Assembly: GCA_963824605.1 (NCBI GenBank) | Contig: CAWGPZ010000006.1 | Span: 321,864-385,863 of the forward strand | Source of the DNA: an uncultured Actinomycetota bacterium | Lineage (GTDB): Bacteria > Actinomycetota > Actinomycetes > JAHEKZ01 | DNA length: 64,000 nt | Direction: 5' to 3' | Part shown: one piece after another, positions 11,771 through 55,541 of the stretch | Layout of the letters: each line of letters starts with the position of its first letter | Position numbering within the stretch: position 1 is the first letter of the stretch | The notes under the pieces: model-generated | Database searches by the model: none | Told to the model about the DNA's origin: nothing | Seen by the model: only the letters and a program-made list of their open reading frames with translations | Translations under genes and position numbers: made by a program

Positions 11771-11782
11771 CGGCGCCGAGCC

Positions 11783-15628: not shown

Positions 15629-15683
15629 GCTGCCCTCAAGGAGTACCGACCGTGGGGCCGATAGAACCGGGAAGGAGGCATTG

Positions 15684-19459: not shown

Positions 19460-19461
19460 TC

Positions 19462-20753
19462 GTGCGGCGTCGATTCCTTCGGGCAACCTTCGGCGTGAGC
19501 GTCTCCATGGTGGTTCTGATGACACTCGCCATGCTCTGGGGGGATTGGACGGGTACCAGGGCGAACATCCAGCGGCAGCTCGGCGCCCAGGCAGACGATG
19601 TCGCAGGCAGCTGCACGAATGGGGGCACACTCAGGGCGAAGTCACCGCTGCCGACCTGCAGCAAATCGTGCCGTTCAATCATCGACTCGAGCTCACCACT
19701 GTCTCCGGCACCGAGCTGGCGGCCGGCAGTTCGACGACGACGGGTCCCTCCGTTCGAACGCACGGTCGACGATGTCGGGGTCATGCGCCTGATCGACACG
19801 AGTGGAACGCTTAGCCGAAACCACCTGGTCGCCACAATCACGATCGTCTTGATCGGGCTGGTGCTCGCCGTCGTGGCGGTCGCCGTGTCGATCCGCACGT
19901 CGCGCCGTCTCACCGAGCCCATCAACGAACTTGCGGCACATGCCGATCGGCTCGGATCTGGCGACCTGCGACCGTCCGACGTCCGCTATGGCATCTCTGA
20001 GCTCGACCGGCTTGCCGACTCGATGGACGCTTCGGTCGTTCGGGTAGCGGCGCTGCTGGCCGAGGAGCGCAGGGTGTCGATCGACGCGTCCCACCAGCTG
20101 AAGACCCCCTTGACCGCGCTGTCGCTACGCCTTGGAGGAACTGGCCGAGTGGCCAGATGACGGCGCCGTTCGAGCGGAGGCGCGCAAGGCGCTCGAACAG
20201 GTCGTCCGGCTGTCTGATGTTGTCGACGATCTACTGATCGACCGCCGATCGCCGAATGCCCGACGAGTGGCGATGCCGCTGAACCTGGTCATCGAGCAGC
20301 AGCTGAGCGAGTGGCGTCCGGCCTTCGATGCGGCTCATCGTCAGATTGTCGGCGACGGTGGACGTGCCGCCGACAACGACCGTGGATGCGGGTCCGGTCG
20401 GACAGGTGCTCGCGTCTTTGATCGAGAACAGCCTGCTGCACGGCGGTGGCACGACCACGATCGAGGCGCACCGTCCGCAGTCGGCCACCTGGATCGAGGT
20501 CTACGACGAAGGGGAGGGGGTGCCCGACGACGTGGCGCCTCGGGTGTTCGAGCGAGATGTCAGTGGCACCGGAGGAACCGGGTTGGGTCTTGCCGCGGCC
20601 CAGGACGCCGCCGTGTCAGTCGGAGGCAGGCTTGCGCTCGTCGGTCGCCGCCCCGCCCACTTCCGGTTCTTCCTCGACGGCAGGGAAGACCCAGCGTCGA
20701 TAGGACCAGAAACGAAAGAGAGTGCCGAGGCCGACCCCCACCACGTTGGCTGA
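19462..20753 (+). CDS. Sensor histidine kinase (TM, HAMP, HisKA, HATPase_c). Its reading frame is broken at least twice.
   Basis: GTG 19462 with a GAGGAAGG SD. The H-box SIDASHQLKTPLTALSLRL is in frame 1 (to 20160). LEELAEWPDD...LNLVIEQQLSEWRPAFDAAHRQI is in frame 2. N-box QVLASLIENSLLHGGG and G-box GTGGTGLGLAAAQDAA are in frame 0. Confidence 0.65.
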
Positions 20754-27801: not shown

Positions 27802-29238
27802 TCAGCCGCAGAGGTTGTCTGCGGCGGTGCGCGAGTCGAGCTTGGAGTCCTGTCGGGCCACCCGCACACGCAGCGGCTTGCTGTAGTCGGCTCCGACAAC
27901 GATCTGGAAGGTGCTTCCGAGGCCCGACACCTCTTCGAAGGTGGCGTCCGGGAAGGCAGCCTTCAGCGTCTTGGCCGAGGTGTTCCACTCGGGGTCGAAC
28001 CGGATCACGGTGGCCGTGACATCACTGCGGTCGTCATTGCCGGGCGCGGCCGCGATCGTGTAGCCGGCCTTGTCGAGGTGCGCGCTCGCGCTTCCGGCGA
28101 GCCCCTCGACGTCGCTTCCGTTGAGGACCTGTACGTCGATGTCGGACGGTGCGACCTGAACCGTCGGGCCCTTCTTCTCCTTGACCAGCGGCTCGTCTTT
28201 CTCGATTGAGTCGAAGACGAGGGCGGCCTTCTTCGCATCCCACTCCACCGAGCTTCCGACCGGGGTGGCCAGATTGACGTTGGACAGGGGAACGGTCAGG
28301 AATCTGATGTCTCGTGGGGTGAGTCCCTCCAGCTCGCCGGCGAGATCGAGCAGCATGTCGCGCGACATTCCTTCATCCACGTCGACGGAGTCGAGCGCGG
28401 CGCCCAGGAACGCGTTGAGCTTGACCGGGTTGAGCAGGACCCCTGCGCTCGTGGCCTCTTGGACCATCGATCCCACGAAGCGCTGCTGCCGCTCCATCCG
28501 TCCGATGTCGGCAGTGGCATCGATATAGCGCGCCCGTACATATGCCAGGCCCATCAGCCCGTCGACATGTGACTTACCAGCAGGAAGGGTGAGTCCGCTG
28601 CGCCAGTCGTCCACGGCGTTGGGGAGGCACACGTCGACCCCCCCGAGGGCATCGACCATGTTCACCACGCCGGCGAATCCGACTTCCACGTAGTGGTCGA
28701 TCGTGAGTCCGGTCTCGCCCTTGACGGTCTCGATGAGCAGGGGGGCGCCGCCGAGCGCATATGCGGCGTTGAGCTTGTTCTTGCTGGCCGGCTGCTTCTT
28801 GCCGTTGGCATCGGTGTGGGCCGGAATCGTGACGTAGGAGTCGCGCGGCAGGCTCACGACCGTGGCGCTCTTCCGGTCTCCCGAGATGTGCAGCAGCATC
28901 ATCGTGTCCGATCGCTGCCCGGTCGAGCTGTTGGCCGCCGTTCCCGTTCCCAGCTCGCGCGCCTCGGCGCGGGTGAGGCCCTCCCGGCTGTCCGACCCGA
29001 CGATCAAGATGGTGAGGGGGCCGCTGCTGTCTCCACTCAGAAGCCCCGAGAGCCCAAGAATCCGACCGATCTTGGCGTCGTAGTAGGTGGCCATGACCCA
29101 CCCACCGGTGCTGGTGACAAAGACAACAGCCGCCAATGCTGTCGTCAGCCAGGTCACCCAGCGACGCTTGTCCGAGGCGGGCTTGACCGTGGTCCCGGCT
29201 GTGCGCGGGGAGAGCTCCGGGGGAAGGGCGGCGCTCAT
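27802..29238 (-). CDS. LCP (LytR-CpsA-Psr) family cell-wall glycopolymer phosphotransferase with a C-terminal LytR_C domain.
   Basis: TM anchor, then an LCP core (LNAAYALGGAPLLIETVKGETGLTIDHYVEVGFAGVVNMVDALGGVDVCLP). Start trimmed to ATG 29238 (MSAALPPEL). Confidence 0.8.
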   Translation of the reverse strand: MSAALPPELSPRTAGTTVKPASDKRRWVTWLTTALAAVVFVTSTGGWVMATYYDAKIGRILGLSGLLSGDSSGPLTILIVGSDSREGLTRAEARELGTGTAANSSTGQRSDTMMLLHISGDRKSATVVSLPRDSYVTIPAHTDANGKKQPASKNKLNAAYALGGAPLLIETVKGETGLTIDHYVEVGFAGVVNMVDALGGVDVCLPNAVDDWRSGLTLPAGKSHVDGLMGLAYVRARYIDATADIGRMERQQRFVGSMVQEATSAGVLLNPVKLNAFLGAALDSVDVDEGMSRDMLLDLAGELEGLTPRDIRFLTVPLSNVNLATPVGSSVEWDAKKAALVFDSIEKDEPLVKEKKGPTVQVAPSDIDVQVLNGSDVEGLAGSASAHLDKAGYTIAAAPGNDDRSDVTATVIRFDPEWNTSAKTLKAAFPDATFEEVSGLGSTFQIVVGADYSKPLRVRVARQDSKLDSRTAADNLCG

Positions 29239-29525
29239 CTGTCGTGGTTCTCCTGGGCAACGTAGTGAGGAAGGCTCGGTGGAGCCCGCGGATGGGACGC
29301 CCGAACCGTCGCGACGGTTCCACCCTGGTCCACTGAGCGTAGGGGAGTGAGCGATGTCGCCGGGATCGGCACGCCGTGTCTTGTGCCTGCGTGGGGTGGC
29401 CTCCAAGGGCTCGGAGCCGACGCCCGTTAGGCTGGGCTATTCACATGAGTGCGTCTCCTGCAGCGCCGGCAGCGTCTTCGCAACCGGCAGACCCGTCCGC
29501 CACGCCGGCCCATCGTCCGTCGGCC

Positions 29526-30396
29526 ATGGCGCGAACACGCGCGATCTGGACCAACCGGCGAATCCTGCGCATCCTGATCGTCCGCGACCTGAAGGTCAGG
29601 TACAGCGACTCGGTGCTGGGATTCTGCCTGGACGCTGCTCGACCCGCTGCTGCTGACCCTCGTCTACTGGTTCGTCTTCGGTGTCATCGTTTCCCGAGGG
29701 TCGGCCACAGAGCAGCCGTACATCCTCTGGCTGCTCACCGGGATCTTGCCCTTCCAGTGGACGTCGCATGTGTTGGGCGACTCAGGACGGCTGCTCGGCA
29801 ACGATGCCAAGCTGGTCACGTCGTCGAGCCTGCCGCGCGAGATCTGGGTGCTGAGATCGGTCTCCTCCCGCTTCGTCGAGTTCTTGTTCACCCTGCCGAT
29901 CACCGCAGTGTTCGTCATCTTCTTCCTGGTGTTCACTGATCAAGATCCGGCGCGCGTCCCCACGATCTGGATCCTGATCCTTCCGGTGGCCTTCGCCGTC
30001 CAGTTCCTCTTCAATGTGGGGCTCGGCCTCCTGCTGTCACCGCTCTGCATGCTCTATCCCGATGTCCAACGGGTGGTGCGGGTTTTCGCCACGCTCTATC
30101 GCTACCTGTCACCGGTGATCTACGGAGTGGCCACGCTCGAAGTCTCGCTGAAAGCCCAGAGCTGGCCGAGCTGGATGCTCATCGGTGACCAGACCTGGCC
30201 TGAGTGGGTGCTGACGATCTACTCGCTCAACCCGCTCACAGGAATCCTGAACGCGTACCACGCCGTCCTCTTCCCGGACGAGGCTCCAGACGTTCTGCCG
30301 CTACTGGGCCTGGCCGCCTTGCTGTCTGCTGTCATCTTCATCTATGGCTGGTGGTTGTTCCGCCGGCTCGAGTCACGCGTACTGAAGGAGCTCTGA
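29526..30396 (+). CDS. ABC-2 type polysaccharide/teichoic-acid exporter permease (TagG/Wzm-like), with an apparent frameshift near 29620.
   Basis: The N-terminus (RILRILIVRDLKVRYSDSVLGF) is in the 29376 frame. The remaining six TM helices (WTLLDPLLLTLVYWFVFGVIV...) are in the 29746..30396 frame. Confidence 0.7.
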
Positions 30397-31370
30397 TGGA
30401 CGCGCCAATGGCTGCGGACACGTCTGGTTCCTCGGCGATGCCCGAGGCCCCGCCGGAGACCGTTGATGCTCCGGTCGCCATCGAGGCACACCAACTCGGC
30501 GTCAAGTTCCGGCGCAACCGCATCCGACACCGGCGACTCTCCGACCTGATCAGGCAGGAGAAGCAGGGGCGGGCGAGAAGTGAGTTCTGGGCGCTCCGCA
30601 ACGTGTCGTTTCAGATCACGCAGGGTGAGTCGGTAGGGATCATCGGGGCGAATGGCCAGGGCAAGAGCACCCTGCTCAAGCTGGTCGCCGGCACGCTGAT
30701 CCCCGATGAGGGGTGGGTGCGACTGGTGGGAGGAGTGGCACCGCTGGTCAACATCTCCGGTGGGTTCAAGGCAGACCTGACCGTTCGCGACAACCTGCAC
30801 ATCGTCGGGGGACTCCACGGCATGCTGCGTGATGAGGTCGAGGAGCGGTTCGACGACATCATCGACTTCGCTGAGGTCGGCGACTTCGTCGACACCCCGT
30901 TCCGGCACCTCTCCAGCGGCATGCGAACCCGAGTGGCGTTCTCCCTCATCACCTCCCTGGACGAACCCACCGTGATCATCGACGAGACGCTGTCGGTGGG
31001 CGACCGCTCGTTCAAGCGCAAGGCGTACGAGCGCCTCGACACGATGCTCGCGGGGGGCAGGACGGTCTTCATCGTCTCGCACAGCGAACGTCAGCTTCAG
31101 CGACTGTGCACGCGAGGGATCTATCTGCGCAGGGGCCGGGTGCAGGCCGATGGTGACATCGGAGAGGTGCTCCAGCAGTACAACGCCGACCGCGAGACCG
31201 AGGGGCACCCCGGATGGAAGGGCGAACGAAAGAGGGCGCGCCGCGAGCGACGTCAACGTCGCAGAGAGGCAGGGCGTCTGGCCGCCGCGGGCCTCTTGCC
31301 CACCGACAACGTCGACTTCGACGAAGAGGGTGAAGACCTTCCTGACGCTCCAGCGCCAAGGCAGGTCTAG
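30396..31370 (+). CDS. ABC exporter ATP-binding protein (TagH/Wzt-like).
   Basis: Walker A GANGQGKST, signature LSSGMRTRV and Walker B IIDE motifs. Its ATG shares a nucleotide with the permease stop codon. Confidence 0.8.
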   Translation: MDAPMAADTSGSSAMPEAPPETVDAPVAIEAHQLGVKFRRNRIRHRRLSDLIRQEKQGRARSEFWALRNVSFQITQGESVGIIGANGQGKSTLLKLVAGTLIPDEGWVRLVGGVAPLVNISGGFKADLTVRDNLHIVGGLHGMLRDEVEERFDDIIDFAEVGDFVDTPFRHLSSGMRTRVAFSLITSLDEPTVIIDETLSVGDRSFKRKAYERLDTMLAGGRTVFIVSHSERQLQRLCTRGIYLRRGRVQADGDIGEVLQQYNADRETEGHPGWKGERKRARRERRQRRREAGRLAAAGLLPTDNVDFDEEGEDLPDAPAPRQV

Positions 31371-31538: not shown

Positions 31539-32988
31539 TCAGCCGGGCACGTTACAGATGTTGTCATTGGCCTGCCGGATACCCGTGGAGTCACGGGGCT
31601 TCCTGACCACGACGCGATCCACGCCTTGCCAGTCGTCTCCGACGACCACCTCAACCGTGGTGCCGAGTCCCGGCCGCAGCACCCGCGTCGAACCGGGTAT
31701 CGCCGCGGTGACGGTTCGCGCCGCGTCCGCCCCAGACTTGTCGTAGCGGACCACGGTGGAGATGAAGTCGCTGCTCTCGGCGACGCCTACACCGATGACC
31801 GAGTAGCCCTTCGCGGCGAGCTCGGCGGCCGCGGTCGTCGCCCTCCCGTCAGTGCCGCTCCCGTTGAGCACACGCACCGACACCGAAGCGGGCGGGACTC
31901 TCAGGGGCTTGCCGTCGATCATCGTCGGGTCGGGCTGTGGGGGCGGGTACGACTCGTCGGCAGCGATCGCCTTCCACAGTGCGTTGGCTCTTCTTCTTGT
32001 TCCAGACCACCGTGTTCGGGTCGTCAGGGTTCACGATCCATGGTGAGGTCACGAAGGTGATGTCCTTGGGAGGGATACCCCGGACTTCCTGCGCGATCTG
32101 CCGCATGCGGTTGAGGTTCGCGAGCTCAGGGTCGGTGGTCAGTGACTTCGTGGCCGCCTCGAGGAACCGCACGAGCTTCACCGGGTTGAGAAGTGTGTTG
32201 GAGCTCTTTGCCTTGGTGATGAGTGAGGACAGAAAGGCCTGTTGACGGTCGATCCGATCGATGTCGCTTCCGGTGCCGATGGCCCTGACCCGGACGAACG
32301 CCAGGGCCTGGTCGCCCGTGACCGTGGTCGTGCCCGCCTCGAGGTTGAGGCCGCTCTTGGGCTCGACAACAGCTTCTGGAAGGCAGACGTCGACGCCTCC
32401 GAGGGCGTCAACGATGTCGTTGAAGCCGGAGAAGTCGACGATGATGAAGTGGTCGATGAACACGCCGGTGTTCTGTTCGACGGTCTTGATCGTGCAGCCT
32501 GGCCCACCGGTCGAGAAGGCGGAGTTGAACCGGTCGGTGTAGGGGGTGGACTGTCCTGTCTGTGTCTTGCACGAGGGGATGTCGAGAACGGTGTCGCGCG
32601 GGATGCTCACCACCAGGGCACTCTCGCGGTCGGCCGGAAGGTGAACGAGCAAAGTGGTGTCCGATCGCGCCCCAGTGATCTCAGCCTCTGGGCCGTAGCC
32701 CCGGCCCTGCCCTGCCCTGGTGTCCGACCCCATGACCAAGATGTTGAGCGGCTCGTTCTCGACATCGGCCGGCCTGGCCACCTTCGTCGGGCGATCGGTG
32801 CCGACGTTGTCCGAGGTGAACACGTCGACCTTGCCGATGTTCCCCTCGAAGCGTTGGTAGAGGTAGAAACCGGTGGCCGCGCCGGCGACGACCAGCAGGG
32901 CGACGATCACCGCCAGCCACTTGACGGTTCGGCGCAGCCGCGGGTGGCCGGAGGAGATCTGCTCCTCCGGTGGTGCGGTGTCCGACAT
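31539..32988 (-). CDS. Second LCP family protein. Its LytR_C domain lies in the +1 frame (apparent frameshift near 31970).
   Basis: The LCP core is in the 31849..32988 frame. The LytR_C domain (VSVRVLNGSGTDGRATTAAAELAAKGY) is in the 31539..31922 frame. The junction VVWNKKKSQR / ALWKAIAADESY aligns to VEWDAKKAALVFDSIEKDE of the first LCP. Confidence 0.7.
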
Positions 32989-33058: not shown

Positions 33059-33835
33059 TCAGGCCAGGATCCGAATTGAGTCTGGGGGTGCTACGCCCTC
33101 AGGAAGGGTTCCGGCCACAGCCGTCACCCGTTCGGATACCCACCGTGAGACGCAGTGCTCGGCCTCCGGGTTCCCCACCCAGACGACGCTGGCGCCCGCG
33201 GCAAGTGGTGCCAGCCACTGGTCCACCACGTCGCTGATCCCGTTCAGGGAGCCCAAGGCGGCGACCCGGTCGGTCGCGACGATATCGAGGGCCCCGGCGC
33301 GGGCCTCGGCGGCCGCACCGAGCTCTCCTGCTGGTCCCACAGGACCCGCCACCTGATCGGGCATCAGGCGCACATCGACCGTGAAGTCACGGACGAGCGG
33401 GGGGAGCGAGGTCTTGAAAGGGGCGGCCAAGGGGGCAAGTGAGACCGCGAAGACCTCGTCGGCGTCCGGTGGCTGCCCCACGAGCTCGGGCCCGATCACG
33501 GCGACGTCGACACGCCCATGGCTGGCCCCGACGCCCGACCCGGCCCCCACCGTCCGCTGTACGACGGCGCCGAGGTGGACCTCCGCCCCCACCGCATCGG
33601 CGGCAAGCACCCAGACCGCCGTGGTCCAGTGACGCGGCAGGTGGAGCGAGATCGTGGCGCCCGGCCCCACTCCGCACTCCAGAATCAGCAGGTTGATGGT
33701 CTTGGCCACCCAGTTCGCAAGGGTGGTCGTCGACAGCTCGACACGTTCGCCGGTGCGGTCGTCGTAGTAGGTCAGGCGAGGGCCGGCCGGATCGCTGGTC
33801 AGGGCCTGCCGCAGGTGTTCGGAAGTAGAGGTCAC
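33059..33835 (-). CDS. Conserved actinobacterial protein (TIGR03089-like), neighbour of the LCP/cpsA locus.
   Basis: 258 aa from GTG 33835. The 439-aa ORF-track version extends through Ser/Thr-rich sequence. Family assignment is from memory of the mycobacterial cpsA neighbour and is weak. Confidence 0.45.
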   Translation of the reverse strand: MTSTSEHLRQALTSDPAGPRLTYYDDRTGERVELSTTTLANWVAKTINLLILECGVGPGATISLHLPRHWTTAVWVLAADAVGAEVHLGAVVQRTVGAGSGVGASHGRVDVAVIGPELVGQPPDADEVFAVSLAPLAAPFKTSLPPLVRDFTVDVRLMPDQVAGPVGPAGELGAAAEARAGALDIVATDRVAALGSLNGISDVVDQWLAPLAAGASVVWVGNPEAEHCVSRWVSERVTAVAGTLPEGVAPPDSIRILA

Positions 33836-33941
33836 GCGAGCTAGGGTAGGGACTCGTCTCCAGCCGGGCCCCTGTCCGGCCGATGGCACCAGGGAATCCT
33901 TTTCCCATCGGACCACCGACTTCCCCCCGGAGAGGCTCCTC

Positions 33942-36581
33942 GTGCGTTTCCCCCGTCCGGCACCAGCCGGAGCGATGTTCGCCGTCGTGCTCGTCGTGCC
34001 CACCGCGATCATCGCGCCGTCCTTCACCGCCTCCTCGCCCACGCCGCACCCAGTGGCTGCCGAGGTGCAGTCAGTTCGCGTCACCGGGGTCGACCGGGGT
34101 GCGCTGCGCCAGGCGCCGGTCCCCGACGAGCTGGAGTCGACGTGGCGCAAGATCGCCACCAGGTCGACCGCAGCGCGGGCGGCCGCTCGCCCGCCGGTCG
34201 CGGTGACCGAGCCGATCGAGACCGACGACTTCCGGATGCTCGGTGTCACCTGGACAGGTGCAGCGCCCAGCGAAGAGGGTGCCGTGCTCGTGACAGCCCG
34301 TACACGTACCGAGAACAGCTGGACGGAATGGTTCGAGGTTCCGACCAGTGTCGACACGGGTACCGAACCTTCACCCAACGGTCGCTACGGAACGGTGCCG
34401 TACTGGGCGGGCGACTCCGACGCCGTGCAGGTGCGGGTCGACGCCGTCGGCAATGCGCGTCCGACCGACGTTCGGGCAGACCTGATCGAACCCGGCACGT
34501 CCGAGGCCGATGCTGCGATCGGCGGCCAGTGGAGTGGCTCGACGGCGACGGCGGCCACCGAGCGTCCGCCGATCGTGACGAGGGCGGAGTGGGGGGCCAA
34601 CGAGTCGCTGCGCGACAAGAATCTGGAGAACAGCGACACCTTCAAGGTGGCGTTCGTCCATCACAGCGCGGGCAGCAACAACTACTCGCGGAGTGAGAGC
34701 CCCGCGGTCGTGCGCGGGCTCTACAGCTACTACGTCAATACGCTCAAGTACGCGGACATGGGGTACAACTTCCTCGTCGACAAGTACGGAACGATTTACG
34801 AGGGACGCGCAGGTAGCATCACCGAGCCGGTCCGGTCGGCGGCCTCCGGCGGTTTCAACACCGACACCTTGGCCGTTGTGGCCATGGGGAACTTTGAGAC
34901 GGCAACAGCCTCCGATGCCATGGTGCGTGGGATCTCGAAGGTCTTGGCATACCGGCTCTCCCACTACCACCGCGATCCGTTCGGCCGGAAGGTCTTGAAG
35001 GCCGAGGTCGGTTCGTCGAAGTACTCGGCGGGCACCAAGGTCAAGTTCAAGGTGATCTCGGGTCACCGAGACTCCCAGCTCACTGCGTGTCCAGGGGGGA
35101 ACCTGTACCAGCGGCTTCCCAAGATCCGGAACCTGGCCAAGGGATACATGGGCGCAAGCCTCATCGAACCGACGCTCTCGCGCACCAGCGTCCCAGTCGG
35201 GTCTGATGTCGCGATCGCCGCCCGAGCTCGCGTGACCCAGTCACAGAACTGGGCACTGACGGTGCGTGACCAATGCACCGGGACCTTGGTACAACGACTG
35301 AAGGGCACGGCGTCACCCACCGACCCGGTCAAGGTGGTATGGCGCGGACGGAACGAGAACGGCAAGCTCGCACCCCCTGGTCGATATCGAGTGACCCTGA
35401 CGAGCACCGGCAACGGCAGCAGCGCCTGGCCCTACGTGCGGTCGGTCGTCGTGGGCGTCGGCGGAGCCGCCGCCAAGCCCACGGAATCGTCACTCAAGGC
35501 GACGGCAGCCGGCACGTATGTACCGCAGCGCCCGCAGGCGCTGCTCTCGACGACGTCCGGCAAGGGCATCAAGAACAAGCTGATCCTTGGGCCGGACCGT
35601 CGTCTCGACGTTCAGGTTCTCGGCAGGGCCGGGGTACCGAGCAGCGGTGTCACGGCAGTGGCTCTGTCGGTCGAAGCGGACTGCGCGAGCAAGGGCACCC
35701 GGGTGACGGTCGGTCCCGACTCTGTGAGTGGGGCCGGGGCCCGAGCCCTCTCGGTCAACCGCAACGGCACGGCGCGTGCGTTCGTCGTGGTGCGCGTCGG
35801 ACCTGACGGGGGCGTTCGCTTCCAGAACTCGGCGGGCGCTGTCGGCCTGAAGGCATCGGTCGTGGGGTATCTCAGCACAAACGGCGGAGGCGGCGCGTTG
35901 AAGCCGCTGAATCGCACCTCGTTGGGCGGCGCCAGCCCACTCCCGGTGGGCACGTCCTCGGTGCCCGTTGACGTCGCCGGCCGGGCTGGGGTGCCCGTCG
36001 ATGCCAAGGCAGTCGTCCTGGCGATCCGTCGGGCGGAGAAGTCGCCGGTCGGGGCCGTGTGGGCATGGCCTGCTGGTACCGGGAAGCCGGCAACGCCGAC
36101 GTGGAAACGTCCGCGAGGGAGCGCCAGTGTGTCTCAGGTGGTGGTGCCGCTGGGTGGCAACGGAGGAATCCGGGTGGCCGCCGACCGGTCTGGATCGGTG
36201 GCGCTCGACGTCGCGGGGTACGTCGCCGCCGACGGAACACGCTCGGTGCACCCCGTCGTGCCGAAGTCATTGCTCGGAAGTGGCACGCGCCTGGGCAAGG
36301 GCGACGCCACGACCGTCAGCGTGCGCGGCCGTGCCGGCGTTCCGTCCGATGCCACCGCAGTCATGGTCCAGGTCACCGGATCGGCGGGCAAGAACCAGGG
36401 GCGGCTCACCGTCTGGCCGAGGGCTGCGAACGAGCCGAAGTCTGCAGACCTCGTCGTCCCAGCCCGGGCAGGGCGTGAAACCCTTGCCGTGCTGCGCCTC
36501 GGCAAGGGGGGCGACGTCCGCCTGCGCGCCCGCGAGGCCAGTCTGCGGGCGAACCTGACGGTCGTCGGCTGGATCCGGTAA
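33942..36581 (+). CDS. Secreted N-acetylmuramoyl-L-alanine amidase (Amidase_2/PGRP domain) with three C-terminal ~100-aa repeat modules.
   Basis: Signal peptide. Amidase_2 motifs RAEWGANES and AFVHHSAGSNNYS...GYNFLVDKYGTIYEGR. Three modules of the form G.AGVP..A.AV..... to V.G[YW]. Confidence 0.7.
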   Translation: MRFPRPAPAGAMFAVVLVVPTAIIAPSFTASSPTPHPVAAEVQSVRVTGVDRGALRQAPVPDELESTWRKIATRSTAARAAARPPVAVTEPIETDDFRMLGVTWTGAAPSEEGAVLVTARTRTENSWTEWFEVPTSVDTGTEPSPNGRYGTVPYWAGDSDAVQVRVDAVGNARPTDVRADLIEPGTSEADAAIGGQWSGSTATAATERPPIVTRAEWGANESLRDKNLENSDTFKVAFVHHSAGSNNYSRSESPAVVRGLYSYYVNTLKYADMGYNFLVDKYGTIYEGRAGSITEPVRSAASGGFNTDTLAVVAMGNFETATASDAMVRGISKVLAYRLSHYHRDPFGRKVLKAEVGSSKYSAGTKVKFKVISGHRDSQLTACPGGNLYQRLPKIRNLAKGYMGASLIEPTLSRTSVPVGSDVAIAARARVTQSQNWALTVRDQCTGTLVQRLKGTASPTDPVKVVWRGRNENGKLAPPGRYRVTLTSTGNGSSAWPYVRSVVVGVGGAAAKPTESSLKATAAGTYVPQRPQALLSTTSGKGIKNKLILGPDRRLDVQVLGRAGVPSSGVTAVALSVEADCASKGTRVTVGPDSVSGAGARALSVNRNGTARAFVVVRVGPDGGVRFQNSAGAVGLKASVVGYLSTNGGGGALKPLNRTSLGGASPLPVGTSSVPVDVAGRAGVPVDAKAVVLAIRRAEKSPVGAVWAWPAGTGKPATPTWKRPRGSASVSQVVVPLGGNGGIRVAADRSGSVALDVAGYVAADGTRSVHPVVPKSLLGSGTRLGKGDATTVSVRGRAGVPSDATAVMVQVTGSAGKNQGRLTVWPRAANEPKSADLVVPARAGRETLAVLRLGKGGDVRLRAREASLRANLTVVGWIR

Positions 36582-36641
36582 AACCGCAGCTCAGAGCGGA
36601 GATGCTCAGGTTCATCGCCGCTCCTGCCGAGACACCACTCT

Positions 36642-39314
36642 GTGACGGGTGTGACGTGTGAGACGAGCCGGAGAACGAGTCCCCACCTCTTGCGCACGGT
36701 GGTGGTCGCCATCATTGTCGCCACCTTGGTGGGCGGCTTCCTCTCCCTCGTCGCCGCCCCAGCGAGGGCTGGCGGAGCCGTAGAGGCGTACAGCCGTCCG
36801 TCCAGCGGGGTCTTCCAGCTCGATGGACTCGGCTACGGGCATGGCATCGGCATGTCGCAGTTCGGCGCCGAGGGGATGGGGCGTCTGGGCAAGGGCTACC
36901 GCGAGATCGTCAAGTTCTACTACCCGGGTACGCGCCTGGCAGAGGTGTCGTCCAGCCGTCAGATCAGGGTCGGGCTCTCGGGCATCGTCGGCAGTACTCC
37001 ACAGGGGACCGGGGTCGTCGTGCCGGCGCGCTCGGGTCTGTCCCTCAGCCACAGAGGCAGCGCCATCGCACTGCCGGCCAACGTGGGCGGCAAGTCGGTG
37101 TCGACGTTTCGCGTGGTCAGGGGCAGCGCAGGTCTTGCGGTCTGGGCGGTCTCGTCGGCCAAGGCAGTGAAGGTGGCCGGAGGGCTCGGCGGATCCGTGA
37201 GATGGCGCACCAGCTCATCGGTGTCCAAGAGCAAGGTGGGCGTTCAGGCGTCCAATGGCAACAAACGGACCTACCGAGGGTTCCTCGACGTCGTGGCCAG
37301 TCCGTCGTCGGTCTACGTCGTGAACCGCCTGCTGCTCGAGGACTACTTGCGGTCGGTGGTCTCATCTGAGGTTCCCAGCTCGTGGACGGAGGCGGCCCTC
37401 CGGGCCCAGGCAGTGGCGGCACGCAGCTACGCCCTGCTCGCCCAGGTCAACGCGCGCGCGGCCAACCGGGCCTACGACATCTGCGACACCACGTCCTGCC
37501 AGGTGTACTCCCCGATCTCGGCCGAGAGTGCAGCTGAGGTGTCGGCGGTACGGGCCACAGCGCATCGCTACCTCCGCGCGAACGGTCAGCCGGTCTTTGC
37601 GATGTTCAGCTCTGCCAATGGCGGGTACTCGGTGGCCGGGAGCCGCTCGTACCTCGTCGCCAAGAAGGATCCCTACGACGGGGTGGTGACCGGAGGCGCA
37701 AACTGGGGCCACAGCTGGTCGACCTCAGTGAGCGCGTCGAAGATCGAGAGTGCCTGGCCGCAGATCGGAACGCTGAAGACGTTGAAGGTGCTCGGTCGAG
37801 ATGGCAACGGCTCGTGGGGTGGGCGGGTCCTGTCCGTGGGCCTTGTGGGGAGCAAGAGCACCGTGACCGTGTCAGCCGACAGCTTCCGCTGGGCTGCTGG
37901 CCTCAAGAGCACCTGGTGGACGATCACGAACGTCGATGGCACCGGCCTGTCACCGGCGAAGAACGTGCGCGTCGCGAAGGGAGATCTCTCGGCGGTCGTG
38001 CGCTGGGGGCCCCCGGCCACTGATCGTGGCGTCAAGGCGTACCGGATCATCATCTCGTCGACCGACCAGACCCACCGGGTGAGCAGTGACGCCCGTCGGC
38101 TGCGGATCACGGGGCTGACCAACGGGAAGCAGTATCGAGCCAAGGTTGCTCCGATCTATCGCTCGGGTCGAGGTCCCCTCGCCGCGACACCAGCTTTCGT
38201 GCCGTCCTCGTCCTACTCCTACTTCCAACAGCTGGCGACGCGCCGCATCGTCGATCGAGGCGAGACACGTGCTGTGACGCGCGACGGCCAGGTATCTGTT
38301 TCCGTGGTCGGATCGGGCCAGGCGCCTGAGCAGGGAACTCGTGCCGTTGCGGTGCGTGTGTCGGCAGCCAGTGCGGGGGACCCAGGTCGGGTCAAGGTCT
38401 GGCCATGCGGCGTGTCCGACCGGAGTCAGGTGGCCGTCACCTACCAGGCAGAGGGGTCGAACTCAGGCCTTGCCACGGTTCGGGTGCCGGCGAAGGGCAG
38501 GTTGTGTCTGGGAGCCAGTACGAAGCTGACATCGCTCGATGTCGACCTGCTGGGCTACTACACGTCGTCCGGCGTGGGCACCAAGGTGATGCGCTCAGTG
38601 GCCGTCCGACGCCTGGTGAACAGCAGCACCGGTCTCGGCTGGGGCAAGGGACGTCTGGCATCCGGCGAGCCGCGAACGGTCAAGATCGCCGGACGCGAAG
38701 GGGTGCCAGCTGATGCTCGCGCCGTTGTCGTGAACATCGGACTCGTCGAACCCACCGAGAATGCCACTGTGAGCACAGCTCCGAAAGGCACTCCCGTGTC
38801 ACTCGGGGCCGTCGTGCGAGCCCCGGCAGGATCGTGGCGCACCGGCACGACAGTTGTCCGGCTTGACGCCGACGGACGCCTCCCGCTGCGACTGACAAAG
38901 GGCAAGGCACACATAGAGGTGGACGTGCTCGGGTGGTTCCGCTCCCAGCAGGGGGACCGATCTGGCCGGTTCCGCACCGTCAAGGGATTCACCGCCCTTG
39001 AGTCGGGATCGTCAGGCGCGCTCTCTGCGGGGGAGTCGCGAACCGTGCGGGTGCGGGGTGCCGGCACCGACGTGCCGGGCGCAGCCTCGTCGGTGATGCT
39101 GCAGGCCATCGCCCGAGGCGATGGTTCGAGCGGGTACCTGACGGTGCTGCCCACCGGTTCGCTCAAGACCGCGCGGCCCTTGTTGGCGTTCGACAGGAAG
39201 GGCACGCATCGGACATTGATGGTCGTTCCGGTCGGTGAGGACGGGAAGATCACCGTCACCGCCAAGGGCAGCGCTGCGAGTGTGTCGCTCCGCGTGGTCG
39301 GCTGGTACTCCTAG
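36642..39314 (+). CDS. Secreted SpoIID/LytB-domain protein with an FN3 domain and three C-terminal repeat modules of the same family as the preceding gene.
   Basis: Signal peptide. SpoIID motifs GYGHGIGMSQFGA, LEDYLRSVV...ALRAQAVAARSYAL, YDICDTTSCQVY and SSANGGYS. FN3 at about aa 440-520. Three repeat modules ending DLLGYYTSS, DVLGWFRS and VVGWYS. Confidence 0.7.
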   Translation: MTGVTCETSRRTSPHLLRTVVVAIIVATLVGGFLSLVAAPARAGGAVEAYSRPSSGVFQLDGLGYGHGIGMSQFGAEGMGRLGKGYREIVKFYYPGTRLAEVSSSRQIRVGLSGIVGSTPQGTGVVVPARSGLSLSHRGSAIALPANVGGKSVSTFRVVRGSAGLAVWAVSSAKAVKVAGGLGGSVRWRTSSSVSKSKVGVQASNGNKRTYRGFLDVVASPSSVYVVNRLLLEDYLRSVVSSEVPSSWTEAALRAQAVAARSYALLAQVNARAANRAYDICDTTSCQVYSPISAESAAEVSAVRATAHRYLRANGQPVFAMFSSANGGYSVAGSRSYLVAKKDPYDGVVTGGANWGHSWSTSVSASKIESAWPQIGTLKTLKVLGRDGNGSWGGRVLSVGLVGSKSTVTVSADSFRWAAGLKSTWWTITNVDGTGLSPAKNVRVAKGDLSAVVRWGPPATDRGVKAYRIIISSTDQTHRVSSDARRLRITGLTNGKQYRAKVAPIYRSGRGPLAATPAFVPSSSYSYFQQLATRRIVDRGETRAVTRDGQVSVSVVGSGQAPEQGTRAVAVRVSAASAGDPGRVKVWPCGVSDRSQVAVTYQAEGSNSGLATVRVPAKGRLCLGASTKLTSLDVDLLGYYTSSGVGTKVMRSVAVRRLVNSSTGLGWGKGRLASGEPRTVKIAGREGVPADARAVVVNIGLVEPTENATVSTAPKGTPVSLGAVVRAPAGSWRTGTTVVRLDADGRLPLRLTKGKAHIEVDVLGWFRSQQGDRSGRFRTVKGFTALESGSSGALSAGESRTVRVRGAGTDVPGAASSVMLQAIARGDGSSGYLTVLPTGSLKTARPLLAFDRKGTHRTLMVVPVGEDGKITVTAKGSAASVSLRVVGWYS

Positions 39315-39347
39315 GGCGGTCTGCGCGGTCGGCCCTAGGCTGACGCC

Positions 39348-40382
39348 ATGCGCGAAGCGGTCCTTCTGGTCGGAGGTCAGGGCACTCGGCTGCGGCCGCT
39401 CACCCTGACCACTCCCAAGCCTCTGCTTCCGGTCGCCGGCGTCCCGTTCCTGACGCATCAGCTGGCCGCCCTACGCCAGGCGGGTGTTGAGCACGTCGTG
39501 CTGGCGACTTCTTATCGAGCCGAGATCTTCCAGGAGACCTTTGGCGACGGGTCGCCCGTGGGCCTGCGCCTCACCTATCTGCACGAGGACGAGCCGCTTG
39601 GTACGGGAGGCGCGATACGCAACGCGGCCGAGGGGCTGGTGTCGAAGCCGGATGATCCTGTCGTCATCTTGAACGGCGACGTGCTGTCGGGGCACAACCT
39701 CACAGCCCAGATCGACGCGCACGTGGCTCGTGGCGCCGACGTCACGCTGCATCTCGTCGAGGTTGACGACGCTCGCTCATATGGGTGCGTACCCACTGAT
39801 GACGATGGTCGAGTGACCGCGTTTCTCGAAAAGATGGAGAACCCCGTCTCGTCGTGGGTGAATGCGGGCGCCTACGTGTTTCGGCGTTCGGTGATCGATG
39901 CCATTCCTTCCGGTGAGGTGGTGTCGGTCGAGCGCGACACCTTTCCTGGGCTGTTGGCATCTGGTCGCCTCGTCCGAGCCTGGAAGGAGACCGCCTACTG
40001 GTGCGATGTGGGGACTCCGGAGGCCCTGGTCCGGTGCTCGGCAGACATCGTGCTCGGCATCGCCCCATCGACCGTTCAGCAGCTCGCCCCTGCGCCGGCT
40101 TGGTTCGCTGACGCCGATCGTCCGCCGGCTGATGCGCAGGTCTTTGGAGGGTCAGCTATCGCTGCCGGATCGGTGATCGAGTCAGAGGCCGTCGTCGATG
40201 CGTCGATCATCATGGCGGGTGCGCGGATCGGTGCCGGTGCGCAGATCACACGCAGCGTCATTGGAGCTGGCGCCATGGTGGGTGCCGGCTCCGTGGTCGT
40301 CGAATCCGCCGTGGGTGACGGGGCCGTCGTGGCCCCGGGCGCCCAGCTCGCATCGGGGTCAAGGGTCGAGGCGACTCCCTGA
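39348..40382 (+). CDS. Mannose-1-phosphate guanylyltransferase (GDP-mannose pyrophosphorylase).
   Basis: LLVGGQGTRLRPLT nucleotidyltransferase motif, followed by a left-handed beta-helix C-terminal domain. Confidence 0.8.
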   Translation: MREAVLLVGGQGTRLRPLTLTTPKPLLPVAGVPFLTHQLAALRQAGVEHVVLATSYRAEIFQETFGDGSPVGLRLTYLHEDEPLGTGGAIRNAAEGLVSKPDDPVVILNGDVLSGHNLTAQIDAHVARGADVTLHLVEVDDARSYGCVPTDDDGRVTAFLEKMENPVSSWVNAGAYVFRRSVIDAIPSGEVVSVERDTFPGLLASGRLVRAWKETAYWCDVGTPEALVRCSADIVLGIAPSTVQQLAPAPAWFADADRPPADAQVFGGSAIAAGSVIESEAVVDASIIMAGARIGAGAQITRSVIGAGAMVGAGSVVVESAVGDGAVVAPGAQLASGSRVEATP

Positions 40383-50000: not shown

Positions 50001-52460
50001 ATGAGCCAGGACGACTCCCCTACCGCTACACCCGCCGACCATCGAGTCGTCGCGGTGTTGGTCGCCCACGACGGGGCAGACTTTCTCCCGCGTTCGCTCG
50101 CTGCTCTGGAAGCGCTCGACCCGGCCCCCGACATCGTCGTAGCGGTCGACACCGGCTCGGCTGACAGCACCGCTGAACTGCTGGCCGAGGCACCGGCCAT
50201 CGACCTGGTCGTCACCCTCTCCGCCGACACCGGCTTCGCCACAGCGGTGCACGCCGGCATCGCGGCGGCCCCCACGGTGAGCGCGGCTGACGGCGGGACA
50301 TCCCAGTGGCTGTGGCTGCTGCACGACGACAGCGCTCCAGACCCGTCGGCGCTGGGAGTGCTCCTGCGTAACGCCGCCGACCAGCCATCGGTGGGTGTGT
50401 GGGGGCCGAAGGTCCTGGGCTGGGACGAGCCGCGACGTCTGCTGGAAGCAGGGGTGTCCATCTCACGTTCCGGTCGTCGGCACACCGGCCTTGAGCCGGG
50501 CGAACAGGACCAGGGGCAGTACGACGGGCAGCGCGATGCGCTCGCGGTCGGCAGCGCAGGCCTGCTCGTGCGCCGTGACGTCTGGGACGACCTCGGCGGG
50601 CTCGATGGGTCCATGCGCTTCTTCCGAGACGACATCGACTTCGGGTGGCGGGCGAACCTTGCCGGCCATCGCGTCGCTGTCGCCACTGACGCCGTGCTGC
50701 ATCACGCCGAGGCCATGGCACGCGGGCGCCGCGCTGATGCGCCGCGAGACCCCCATGCCGTGGACCGAGGCAGTGCCCTGTACACGTTGCTCGCCAACAG
50801 CCGCCGCTCGACGGTGCTCTTCCGGTGGGTGTGGCTCCTCCTTCAGACCCTGGTCCGGGCACTGGGGTACGTCCTCGGAAAGGCGCCCCGCGAGGCCGCT
50901 GCCGAGATGAGTGCGATGGTGACCGTTCTCCTGCGGCCCATGCTGATCTGGCGTGCGCGGCGTGTGCGCCGCAGTCGACGAAGGGTGCCCGCGCGCAGTC
51001 TCCGGTCGCTCTTCCCCCCTCCAGGGCAACAGGTGCGACAGACGATCGAGACGCTGGCTGGGTCGCTGACCGTCCAAACCGATGTCCACCCCAGCACCAT
51101 CTTGGAGTCCGGTCCCGCCGAGGACGATCTGGACTCGTTCGTCGCCGTCAGCTCGGGCCGGCTTGGTCGGTGGGCCCGCCGCCCTGGGGTCATCCTCTTC
51201 GCCGGCCTTCTGGCCGTTCAGGTCGTGGCCTGGCGTGGTCTCTACCGAGGCGGGGTCCTCCATGGCGGGGCACTGCTGCCGATGCCGACAGGTGCGACAG
51301 ATCTCTGGCAGGCCTACACCGCCACGTGGCACCCGGTGTCGCTCGGTAGCGGAACCATGGCGCACCCCTCGACGGCAGTTCTGGGGCTCATCGCGACTGC
51401 GCTGCTGGGTCATGCCACGTGGGTCGTGCCGGTCATCCTGGTCGTCGGACCGGCGTTGGCCGGGTTGTTGGCCTACCAGGTCACTCGGTCGTTCGGCCTC
51501 TCCACGCGGCTGCGGGTCTGGGTGGGAGTCGCTTATGCGCTCAACCCGGTGTTTCTCGCGGCCACGGCCCAAGGCCGCTGGACGACCGTGCTCATCGGCG
51601 TCCTGGTGCCGCTTGCAGGTGTCGCCGTTGCCCGCGGCGTGGGCATCGGGACCGAGGCTGCCTCGGTGAGAGCGACCGCTGTCGCGGTCCTGCTGCTCGG
51701 CGTGATGCTTGCGTTGGCGCCTCCCCTTCTCGCTCCCCTGGTGGCGATGGCGGTGGCACTGGCGTTCCGGTCGCCGGCTCGCAGCGCTCCGTCGCCCAGC
51801 GATGTCAGGCATCCGGCGCGGCGGATGGCCATCGTGCTGGCGGTCGCCCCGCCAGTGCTTCTGCTGCCGTGGTGGCCAGTGGTGGTGAGTGACCCGAGCG
51901 TTCTCCTGCTGGAACCGGGTGTGGCATGGGTGGGTGACACCGAGGCTCCCTGGCAGGCGATCTTCTTCGATCCGGGCGGCTGGTGGTCAAGTCCCTGGTG
52001 GTTCGGACTCGGACTGGCAGTGGCGGCGCTCATGGCGGTCCTGAGGGCCCAGCAAGTGCCACCTGTGCGAGCAGCACTGATGGTTCTCGGGCTCTGTCTG
52101 GCCTGGGCGCTGGTCCTCGAGTCGGTCGTGGTGACTCCCGCGACGAGCACTCAGCCGGTGGCCGTGTGGAGTGGCTCGGTGCTGGTCCTGGCGGTGGCTG
52201 CGAGCCTGGTCGCGGTGGCGACCGCGGCGCGCGGCAGTCGCCAGCGGCTGCAGCGAGCCACCTTCTCATGGCGCCAGCCCGCTCTTCGCCGCCGTCGCCA
52301 CGCTCGCCGTTCTGAGCCCACTGGTGTGGGGCATCTCATGGGTGGACCGCGGAGCGACCGACCCGCTCGATCGCGGATCGGCCAACCCGCTGCCGGCGTT
52401 CGTGCGCGCGCAGTCCGAGCTCCCCGAGCAGATCCGCACCTTGGTGCTCGAACCAGCTGA
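50001..52460 (+). CDS. GT2 family glycosyltransferase fused to a large polytopic membrane domain.
   Basis: N-terminal GT-A fold (VAVLVAHDGADFLPRSL...VVAVDTGSADST). From about aa 320 onward the hydropathic composition indicates more than 10 TM helices. Confidence 0.65.
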   Translation: MSQDDSPTATPADHRVVAVLVAHDGADFLPRSLAALEALDPAPDIVVAVDTGSADSTAELLAEAPAIDLVVTLSADTGFATAVHAGIAAAPTVSAADGGTSQWLWLLHDDSAPDPSALGVLLRNAADQPSVGVWGPKVLGWDEPRRLLEAGVSISRSGRRHTGLEPGEQDQGQYDGQRDALAVGSAGLLVRRDVWDDLGGLDGSMRFFRDDIDFGWRANLAGHRVAVATDAVLHHAEAMARGRRADAPRDPHAVDRGSALYTLLANSRRSTVLFRWVWLLLQTLVRALGYVLGKAPREAAAEMSAMVTVLLRPMLIWRARRVRRSRRRVPARSLRSLFPPPGQQVRQTIETLAGSLTVQTDVHPSTILESGPAEDDLDSFVAVSSGRLGRWARRPGVILFAGLLAVQVVAWRGLYRGGVLHGGALLPMPTGATDLWQAYTATWHPVSLGSGTMAHPSTAVLGLIATALLGHATWVVPVILVVGPALAGLLAYQVTRSFGLSTRLRVWVGVAYALNPVFLAATAQGRWTTVLIGVLVPLAGVAVARGVGIGTEAASVRATAVAVLLLGVMLALAPPLLAPLVAMAVALAFRSPARSAPSPSDVRHPARRMAIVLAVAPPVLLLPWWPVVVSDPSVLLLEPGVAWVGDTEAPWQAIFFDPGGWWSSPWWFGLGLAVAALMAVLRAQQVPPVRAALMVLGLCLAWALVLESVVVTPATSTQPVAVWSGSVLVLAVAASLVAVATAARGSRQRLQRATFSWRQPALRRRRHARRSEPTGVGHLMGGPRSDRPARSRIGQPAAGVRARAVRAPRADPHLGARTS

Positions 52461-53115
52461 CGGCCGGCTGGCCTACACGGTCCTTCGTGACAGAGACGCC
52501 ACATGGGGCGACGTCGAGAACGCGCCTCCCGCCGACCGGCTCCTCTCGATGGACCTGGTGGTCTCCGACCTGGCGTCCGGGCGGGGCTTTGCTCCCGTCG
52601 ATGAGCTGGTGGCTCGTGGCGTGCAGTATGTCCTTGCGGTTCCACCCGTTGACGCGGATCTGGAGGTCGCCCTCGACTCCGCCCCTGGCCTGCTGAGGAT
52701 CGCCAACCCAGGCGACGCCTCGCTGTGGCGCGTCGAGCTGGACGCGGGCCGCGTCCAGCTGTTGGGCGCCGATGACCAGAGAGAGGTGCTGCCCTCGGAG
52801 GTAGCGGGCGACCCGTCGTCAGCGCGGGTTGAGGTGCCCGGGGCAGAAGGCGACCGACTGCTGGAGCTCGCCGAGCTCGCCGACGAGGGGTGGGTCGGCA
52901 CCGCCACCTCCCAGGACCAGACCCGCGAGCTGCCTGTCGGTGCAGCAACGGAGTGGGGACAGCGCTTTGTGGCCGGCGCCGTGGCCGCCGAGGTGTCGAT
53001 GGTGGTCGAGAATCCGTGGCGTCGCGCCTTGCTGTGGAGTCAGCTGGTTCTTGTTGTGCTCCTCGTGCTCGTTGCTCTGCCTGGCAGGTCCCGCCGAGAC
53101 GAGGAGGCGGTGTGA
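52171..53115 (+). CDS. Probable C-terminal continuation of the GT2 membrane protein in the +1 frame (frameshift near 52290), or alternatively a separate gene.
   Basis: After the Arg/Trp-rich first 30 codons, this frame reads as a TM helix plus a periplasmic domain and ends in a TM anchor LLWSQLVLVVLLVLVALPG. The upstream frame ends in an Arg-rich tail. Confidence 0.4.
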   Translation: MARCWSWRWLRAWSRWRPRRAAVASGCSEPPSHGASPLFAAVATLAVLSPLVWGISWVDRGATDPLDRGSANPLPAFVRAQSELPEQIRTLVLEPADGRLAYTVLRDRDATWGDVENAPPADRLLSMDLVVSDLASGRGFAPVDELVARGVQYVLAVPPVDADLEVALDSAPGLLRIANPGDASLWRVELDAGRVQLLGADDQREVLPSEVAGDPSSARVEVPGAEGDRLLELAELADEGWVGTATSQDQTRELPVGAATEWGQRFVAGAVAAEVSMVVENPWRRALLWSQLVLVVLLVLVALPGRSRRDEEAV

Positions 53116-55497: not shown

Positions 55498-55541
55498 CCG
55501 GGCGCTCAGCAGCGTCTCCTGGCTCGGTAGGGTCCAGGTCT

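Follow-up and report, generated by a model that had tools for sequence, protein, structure and literature searches.

Adjacent amidase and SpoIID-type genes of an uncultured actinobacterium share a three-repeat module that may anchor both enzymes to the cell wall

Introduction

The SpoIID enzymes that have been characterised cut the glycan strands of peptidoglycan only once the stem peptides have been taken off by an amidase, and are inactive on intact peptidoglycan (PMC6221140, PMC6635528); SpoIID homologues also act at the division septa of Chlamydiales (PMC6635528). (One review, PMC7985256, makes SpoIID the amidase and SpoIIP the transglycosylase, which is the reverse of the primary work in PMC6221140 and PMC6635528, and was not used here.) Among wall anchors, the SLH and CWB2 modules work as a pseudo-trimer, for which three tandem repeats are required, and they bind peptidoglycan-linked polymers, CWB2 binding the cell's own wall in Clostridioides difficile (PMC4973711). 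We describe here a 64,000-nucleotide stretch of DNA (the window; positions 321,864 to 385,863 of contig CAWGPZ010000006.1, assembly GCA_963824605.1) from an uncultured bacterium of the Actinomycetota, in which two adjacent genes, called p1 and p2 below, encode a secreted amidase and a secreted SpoIID/LytB-type protein that both end in the same unnamed module of three tandem repeats, the triplet. The source organism is represented solely by metagenome-assembled genomes (MAGs).

We think it probable, if well short of certain, that this locus specifies a two-enzyme peptidoglycan-cutting unit that works on the cell's own wall, both enzymes being sent to the same address by the same non-covalent, pseudo-trimeric anchor. 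The zinc amidase p1 would first strip the stem peptides from N-acetylmuramic acid, and p2, as a lytic transglycosylase with a catalytic Glu, would then cleave the denuded glycan strands. Each enzyme consists of a signal peptide, a catalytic part, an immunoglobulin (Ig)-like spacer (FlgD_ig or fn3) and the C-terminal triplet, and the triplet would bind a wall component, either peptidoglycan itself or, more likely, a glycopolymer that the neighbouring genes make and LCP proteins attach, thereby matching in role the three-repeat SLH/CWB2 anchors of Firmicutes. If p1 prepares the substrate of p2 at the same site, then gene fusion, gene adjacency and matched anchors are to be expected.

Results and Discussion

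Six copies of one repeat in two adjacent proteins

The p1 and p2 open reading frames are co-directional and 60 nt apart (Table 1); p1 starts at a GTG codon with a ribosome-binding site, GGAGAGG, 6 nt upstream. In both proteins a hydrophobic segment comes after a positively charged start. Their C-terminal halves are alike: BLASTP aligns p1 residues 552-877 with p2 residues 548-888 at E=7e-30, and aligns the two proteins again, one unit out of register, at E=2e-17. The similarity resolves into six units of 112-125 aa, three in tandem in each protein, and the triplet makes up 41% of p1 and of p2. When each unit was sought with a hidden Markov model (HMM) built from the other five, the p1 units were recovered at E=4e-19, 6e-18 and 7e-26 and the p2 units at E=2e-18, 3e-20 and 6e-22, and an HMM scan found no seventh copy in any frame of the 64-kb window. 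A preliminary description of this DNA, made by reading the letters and the translations, had proposed two adjacent secreted proteins, an amidase and a SpoIID/fn3 protein 60 nt apart, with six copies of a repeat, three per protein; the reading frames and the Pfam and NCBIfam matches agree with the former, and the leave-one-out values, spanning 1e-18 to 1e-26, with the latter. The motifs it pointed out are present (GRAGVP..A.AV, TVWP and VVGY/W), as are the VVGW ends (VVGWIR in p1, VVGWYS in p2), but its unit length of ~100 aa is too short and its "nearly half" of each protein too large.

Table 1. Positions of p1, p2, their parts and the neighbouring genes in the window
Feature	Position	Strand	Size or residues	Basis or remarks
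p1, secreted N-acetylmuramoyl-L-alanine amidase, Rv3811/Ami3 type	33942-36581	+	879 aa	Open reading frame, Pfam
p1 N-terminal signal/anchor segment	33942-34037	+		MRFPR, then ~20-aa hydrophobic run; read from translation
p1 Amidase_2/PGRP catalytic domain	34644-35096	+	aa 235-385	Pfam E=1.2e-9
p1 FlgD_ig Ig-like spacer	35241-35411	+	aa 434-490	Pfam E=3e-8
p1 triplet module	35511-36578	+	units aa 524-648, 652-765, 768-879	BLASTP, leave-one-out HMMs
p2, secreted SpoIID/LytB-type putative lytic transglycosylase with fn3 spacer and triplet	36642-39314	+	890 aa	Open reading frame, TIGR02669, Pfam
p2 signal peptide	36642-36770	+		Hydrophobic helix aa 19-34, then A41-R42-A43, then G44
p2 GHGxGMSQxGA segment	36816-36944	+	aa 59-101	Matches C-terminal part of Firmicute SpoIID
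p2 SpoIID/LytB core with invariant, predicted catalytic Glu243	37317-37991	+	aa 226-450	Pfam, NCBIfam
p2 fn3 spacer	37953-38177	+	aa 438-512	Pfam E=6e-7
p2 triplet module	38217-39311	+	units aa 526-644, 648-770, 775-890	BLASTP, HMMs, AlphaFold2
manC, mannose-1-phosphate guanylyltransferase	39348-40382	+		NCBIfam NF052502, 446.6 bits (cutoff 440)
TIGR03089-family gene, divergent, conserved left neighbour of p1	33059-33850	-		NCBIfam E=6e-60; synteny
LCP transferase	27802-29406	-		Left-hand neighbourhood, wall-glycopolymer context
TagH/Wzt-like ABC ATPase	30204-31370	+		Wall-glycopolymer context
LCP transferase	31849-32988	-		Wall-glycopolymer context
RDD-family gene	62385-63275	-
SpoIIM-family (PF01944) gene	63340-64000			Runs off the window end; divergent from RDD-family gene

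No Pfam or NCBIfam model matches the C-terminal half of p1 or p2, and a search of the PDB sequences with the six-unit profile gave matches at chance level only (a nanobody framework, E=0.13; Nup54, E=0.33). The statement that the repeat belongs to no named domain family is in this way borne out for Pfam, NCBIfam 20.0 and the PDB sequences.

The amidase and SpoIID genes stay together in relatives

The order TIGR03089-family gene (opposite strand), amidase, SpoIID, manC, a gene for a 314-aa protein and, farther on, fbiB and fbiA is kept in all eight MAG relatives, whose identity falls from 89% to 62-66%, and the TIGR03089/amidase/SpoIID/manC order is also present at a more distant locus (L013) with 43% identity. 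Several relatives carry the two enzymes as one protein. For example, residues 3-495 of the ~1,360-aa fusion P0075 correspond to p1 5-498 (the amidase half, minus the triplet), and residues 503-1360 correspond to p2 45-890 (the mature SpoIID part with fn3 and triplet); the N-terminus of p1 is retained in such fusions. Another fusion, P0201, is found at the same locus, between the TIGR03089-like/LCP genes and manC ... fbiB fbiA. In Thalassiella azotivora the repeat is present in both enzymes, whose genes lie 6.6 kb apart on either side of a Wzm/Wzt/glycosyltransferase cluster. When all the fetched loci were scanned with the HMM in six frames, the repeat turned up only in amidase and SpoIID genes.

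The anchor itself is exchanged between relatives. On one contig of 72-75% GC from an actinobacterial MAG (L015) the amidase and SpoIID genes overlap by 4 nt (8001-12541), and each protein has three CWB2 repeats, beginning at aa 505 and aa 423, where p1 and p2 have the triplet. CWB2 is usually described from Firmicutes. (PF04122, the CWB2 model, is listed for many other actinobacterial homologues.) Some amidase and SpoIID homologues have LGFP repeats in place of the triplet. Because of the synteny, the fusions and the matched anchors we conclude, from comparison of the genes and their products, that p1 and p2 are functionally linked, a coupling that the preliminary description had also supposed. 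Its suggestion that the repeats target the wall is plausible in that homologues carry CWB2 or LGFP anchors at the same position.

p1 is an Rv3811-type amidase

Amidase_2 (PF01510) matches p1 with 39 bits, above its curated threshold of 26, and PGRP structures are matched with E values down to 1.5e-15. Residues H240/H241, Y275, N276, H375, T381 and C383 are invariant in p1 across 36 homologues. In the Amidase_2/PGRP family the zinc ligands are His, His and Cys, there is a catalytic Tyr, and a Thr or Lys lies two residues before the Cys. The H+6/H+8 spacing of p1 is that of H122-K128-C130 in T7 lysozyme, the residue roles being taken over from T7 lysozyme and PGRP-LB. p1 should be catalytically active because its H/T/C spacing equals that of the zinc-binding and catalytic residues of T7 lysozyme and the catalytic PGRPs.

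A protein 96% identical to p1 (P0139) is annotated with PF01510, PF27503 (Rv3811_N) and PF13860, and PF27503 is annotated N-terminal to Amidase_2 in nearly all listed p1 homologues; the Pfam release that we scanned does not report PF27503 on p1, and the assignment is made through the P0139 annotation, from a newer release. Rv3811 is the Amidase_2-type Ami3 of mycobacteria (PMC3987819). p1 has the Rv3811_N + Amidase_2 core in common with Mycobacterium tuberculosis Rv3811 and differs from it in having FlgD_ig and the triplet in addition, and identity across the family is only moderate. We know of no SpoIID partner adjacent to Rv3811 in mycobacteria. At L013, positions 1387-10625 hold in order GlfT2, Glf, GT2, LCP, a gene for a 281-aa protein and the Rv3811-type amidase, which we take to resemble the Rv3808c-Rv3811 neighbourhood of M. 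tuberculosis; the L013 order suggests an old link between Rv3811-type amidases and wall-galactan genes.

p2 has a permuted SpoIID domain

The match of p2 to TIGR02669 (E=2e-50, 172 bits; cutoff 83.3) and to PF08486, the Pfam SpoIID family (E=7e-24, 84.7 bits against a cutoff of 23), places it in the SpoIID/LytB family. Its E243 aligns with the Glu of the LAGEM motif in PDB entry 5i1t and of ASEM in 4rwr, is invariant across 52 SpoIID homologues, and is the equivalent of E101 of C. difficile SpoIID, which has been validated as catalytic (PMC6221140). Also invariant in the 52 homologues are G64, G66, H67, G68, G70, S72 and Q73 of the GHGxGMSQ motif. p2 residues 63-100 align with 4rwr residues 281-318, and the GHG segment corresponds to positions 295-337 of the 338 positions of TIGR02870, the sporulation SpoIID equivalog. 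The GHGxGMSQxGA segment is thus N-terminal in p2 and C-terminal in 4rwr and 5i1t: by these alignments the SpoIID domain of p2 (aa 59-450, 36816-37991) is circularly permuted relative to the solved Firmicute enzymes, from which its linear order of segments differs. All 122 actinobacterial homologues that have both segments show the p2 order, and our search of the open-access full-text literature found no description of a SpoIID permutation. Apart from the permuted SpoIID order, the two enzymes are ordinary members of known families, and the interest lies in the triplet. Both family assignments are direct results of these searches; the activities, and the order in which the two enzymes would act, are read across from characterised relatives.

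p2 resembles Firmicute SpoIID (4rwr, 5i1t) in keeping the catalytic Glu and the GHGxGMSQ motif and differs in its permuted domain order and in lacking a sporulation context. The preliminary description had seen in the pair the counterpart of the Firmicute SpoIID/SpoIIP engulfment hydrolases and had noted a SpoIIM-like gene at 63340; that is, p1, p2 and this gene would form an actinobacterial version of the SpoIID/SpoIIP/SpoIIM machine, working at the septum. The chemistry would be shared, with an amidase acting first and SpoIID then acting on denuded glycan (PMC6221140), SpoIID homologues do work at chlamydial septa (PMC6635528), and the gene at 63340 is real (PF01944, E=8e-23, to the end of the window). 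Against this, p1 is an Amidase_2 protein not of the SpoIIP family (no SpoIIP-family match at E<=1, only Amidase_2 and FlgD_ig), and p2, besides being permuted, scores 103.3 bits on TIGR02870, far under the equivalog cutoff of 234.75. The PF01944 gene is 24 kb from the pair, with F420-biosynthesis, radical-SAM, glycosyltransferase, DUF5719, phosphomannomutase and isomerase genes between, is divergent from an RDD-family gene, and is absent from the conserved neighbourhoods of the pair that were fetched. The engulfment-machine explanation is accordingly very improbable, and no link of the SpoIIM-like gene to the pair is seen. A further difference from Firmicute SpoIID/SpoIIP, and from the SpoIID/AmiA pair of Waddlia, is that p1 and p2 are both secreted with anchor modules and that the partner amidase is of another family. 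Through its pairing with p1, p2 would show the dependence of SpoIID on an amidase to hold outside sporulation and the Chlamydiales as well.

The triplet belongs to a very large family and comes as none or three

The distribution of the repeat was determined by an exhaustive HMMER search of 1.84 billion cluster representatives with the six-unit profile, which returned 22,113, 13,575 and 4,406 representatives at E<=1e-3, 1e-10 and 1e-30, respectively (a word-indexed homologue search with the same profile gave 18 short fragments only). Exactly three units were present in 125 of the 147 best representatives and six units in 9 of them; the rest mostly showed five, probably because one of six units was missed in detection. 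This list of 147 is biased toward high copy numbers, and a less biased count is provided by proteins recovered through their catalytic domains and not through the repeat: 98 of these had no copies and 132 had three, and the 7 exceptions to this none-or-three rule are truncated open reading frames or cases in which units were split or missed in detection. In the 147 best representatives the triplet either follows directly on the signal peptide or forms the C-terminus, and the family consensus reads PAR.LDTR ... GRGGVP..GV.AVVLNVTAT.P ... TVWP.G..RP.ASNLN ... DV.GYF.

Partner domains include Amidase_2, SpoIID, CHAP, Peptidase_M15_4, subtilase (S8), CAP, PhoX, RCC1, PKD, FG-GAP and fn3, and the sample's list of 25 partner families includes no glycoside hydrolase. 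The named carriers are all Actinomycetota (Streptomyces, Actinopolymorpha, Calidifontibacter, Flindersiella, Cellulomonas and Thalassiella), and the proteins go by "hypothetical protein" or by names taken from their other domains. The repeat is covered by no Pfam model in 69 diverse members and by no NCBIfam 20.0 model, annotations from the newer Pfam release (the one with PF27503) give catalytic domains only, even on canonical-triplet proteins, and CWB2 and SLH profiles match neither p1 nor p2 nor any of the 69 members. We found no account of the module in the open-access full-text literature, where absence is no proof of novelty. The triplet belongs to a very large, unnamed and apparently actinobacterial family that is carried by many kinds of secreted proteins. 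A family model for it would improve the annotation of thousands of "hypothetical" proteins.

Predicted structure and possible ligands of the triplet

AlphaFold2, run on p2 residues 523-890 (368 aa) with an alignment of 82 sequences, predicts three eight-stranded beta-sandwiches connected by linkers of ~6-8 residues, with a mean predicted local distance difference test value (pLDDT) of 96.5 and a predicted template modelling score (pTM) of 0.93; the beta-sandwich modules of the preliminary description agree with these models. A model of full-length p2, made with a different alignment of 52 sequences, has pLDDT values of 90-97 over the triplet, low values over residues 1-46 (in which 19-34 form a helix) and a pTM of 0.57, which indicates flexible joints between the catalytic part, fn3 and the triplet. 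Foldseek comparison of the triplet model with the PDB found only jelly-roll-type sandwiches, at a global template modelling (TM) score of ~0.2, and these include a single-chain adiponectin C1q trimer and a viral triple jelly-roll. Because of the pTM value, the short linkers, the none-or-three rule and the jelly-roll-trimer matches, the most economical reading is that the triplet is most likely a single-chain pseudo-trimer that forms one rigid body. Family and fold are direct results of the searches and of the modelling; pseudo-threefold packing, wall binding and the nature of the ligand are what we would add to them by analogy.

The triplet resembles the CWB2 and SLH anchors in its three tandem non-identical repeats, in being present all or none, in its N- or C-terminal location on diverse secreted proteins, in its predicted compact three-part body and in its replacement, in actinobacterial p1/p2 homologues, by three CWB2 repeats at the same position (PMC4973711). 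It differs from them in having no sequence similarity to them and in its predicted all-beta, eight-stranded sandwich. The CWB2 and SLH folds are unlike such a sandwich. We liken the triplet to these anchors because of the LCP, TagH/Wzt-like and manC neighbours of the pair and because of the three-repeat precedent.

The folds nearest to a single unit also bring up other functions. The tip of the Bdellovibrio bacteriovorus Bd2133 MAT fibre (PDB 8ok3/8ond) is a ~120-aa beta-sandwich, three chains of which make up a homotrimeric adhesin head that has ions on its three-fold axis, and its authors reported no PDB homologue at that time (PMC10769870). A triplet unit shares this fold with a sequence identity of 9%, at which homology is not established; the triplet has three copies in one chain on globular enzymes, whereas Bd2133 has three chains on a beta-helical fibre, and the comparison is one of fold alone. 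The predicted sandwich is also like those of single-chain TNF/C1q jelly-roll trimers. With an adhesin tip of a predatory bacterium and the CBM6/35/36 modules as its nearest folds, and with relatives on many secreted enzymes, proteases and PhoX among them, the triplet might bind carbohydrate or act as an adhesin on something outside the cell, for example polysaccharide in the environment or other bacteria's walls, the enzymes then being secreted bacteriolytic weapons and not housekeeping autolysins. We consider this unlikely: the pair sits in a conserved core locus, from LCP/TIGR03089 to manC-fbiAB, in all relatives, the 25 listed partner families include no glycoside hydrolase, CWB2, which occupies the same position elsewhere, is a self-wall anchor in C. 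difficile (PMC4973711), and the canonical triplet has no phage match. The last point comes from a tblastn search against 50,697 phage records; at the sensitivity of that search, use of the module by phage endolysins or receptor-binding proteins is unsupported.

A protein-protein function (oligomerisation, surface-layer-like assembly or autoinhibition of the catalytic domain) would fit with the loss of the family's polar residues and retention of the structural core in the window's units (below), and contact between proteins is a frequent role of jelly-roll trimers (TNF, C1q, nucleoplasmin, capsids). The full-length p2 model, with its pTM of 0.57, predicts no fixed docking to the catalytic domain, a result that can be taken either way. 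Exchange with CWB2 and LGFP in both enzymes, on the other hand, favours anchoring, and the presence of the module on unrelated catalytic domains, at either terminus, is a poor fit to autoinhibition. We rate this explanation, too, as having little chance of being correct.

Several observations weigh against a shared wall anchor on two coupled enzymes. Ten polar positions are 80-96% conserved in the family HMM (R21, D24, T25, R26, N63, T65, S88, N91, N100 and D126), and in the amidase/SpoIID lineage of the window their conservation falls to 4-47%; the six units of the window have the family residue in only 6 of the 60 cells. These units do keep the structural core (G48, P53, V60, P79, G110 and G129). 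If the polar set is a ligand site, its specificity may have been changed or lost in this lineage. The likeness of the single-unit fold to CBM6/35/36 modules and viral jelly-rolls also leaves room for other ligands. Nor do the two enzymes always go together: Cellulomonas sp. Root930 has no SpoIID gene closer than 8 kb to its amidase gene, and the SpoIID genes of Nocardioides mesophilus and of one Mycobacteriales MAG have no amidase gene beside them. Finally, the anchors are not matched at two loci where the amidase keeps its triplet, L008 having a SpoIID partner of ~526 aa without the triplet (9072-10652) and L013 one of 409 aa without fn3 and triplet (10800-12029). The adjacency of the pair, kept in the eight MAG relatives and L013, is not universal across the Actinomycetota.

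Two or three units of more distant amidase homologues, from Thalassiella and Cellulomonas, and of one SpoIID protein have the canonical R..DTR motif, and because of this the window triplets are, as judged from the aligned units, a derived sub-branch of the repeat family. Position-specific HMMs for units 1, 2 and 3 classed held-out units only weakly (86 of 183 right), and pairwise scores among the six units of the window do not clearly pair the positions; because of these two results we do not claim ancient, non-interchangeable unit positions like those of CWB2.

Taken with these reservations, the circumstantial case that the triplet anchors proteins to the wall is good and the role plausible. 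A bolder form of the proposal seems to us possible but on balance doubtful: that, next to SLH and CWB2, the triplet makes a third class of three-repeat, single-chain pseudo-trimeric wall anchor, of unrelated structure and specific to the Actinomycetota, that binds an LCP-attached wall glycopolymer (galactan or teichoic-like) made by the neighbouring genes, with the ligand site of the window's lineage remodelled together with its wall polymer. If that were so, actinobacteria would rely on triplets throughout their genomes to present hydrolases, proteases, phosphatases and adhesins at the cell surface. Non-covalent attachment of proteins to the wall is poorly described in Actinomycetota outside the Corynebacteriales, and the triplet is a candidate for a general actinobacterial anchor that could be put to use as a tag for directing proteins to the wall in Streptomyces and its relatives. 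The pair, its fusions and its swapped anchors amount to a natural experiment on sending two sequential hydrolases to the same place.

Neighbouring genes and other features of the window

The manC start is 33 nt past the p2 stop codon, and not 34 as first described. No terminator-like site was found by consensus scan between p1, p2 and manC, and the p2-manC adjacency is kept at L001-L008, L011 and L013, also where the pair is fused. The proposed co-transcription of manC with p1 and p2 in one operon is plausible on these grounds (the short gap, no conserved terminator and kept adjacency). No sigma-70-like promoter was found; consensus scans of this kind carry little weight for an actinobacterium of 67% GC. 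An 8-bp perfect inverted repeat, CCTAGGGC...GCCCTAGG (39310-39339), overlaps the p2 stop codon. It does not stand out from shuffled sequences (z = -1.1) and is not kept in relatives, and we rejected it as a terminator or attenuator for these two reasons. The ~15 nt directly upstream of the manC ATG (CTAGGCTGACGCC) are conserved in relatives.

LCP and TagH/Wzt-like neighbours of the kinds listed in Table 1 recur at L011-L014, L016 and L018, and related loci add Glf/GlfT2, Wzm/Wzt and YfhO. The window also contains a second envelope/sugar-nucleotide cluster, in which genes for an 819-aa GT2-family glycosyltransferase and a DUF5719 protein adjoin (50001-52460 and 52890-54632) and are followed by genes for a phosphomannomutase (55326-56954) and a bacterial phosphoglucose isomerase (PGI)-like SIS protein (57120-58274). 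Farther to the left of the pair are two adjacent GAF-GGDEF genes of the diguanylate-cyclase type (13522-15450 and 15612-17336) and then a gene for a HAMP-domain protein (19315-20160).

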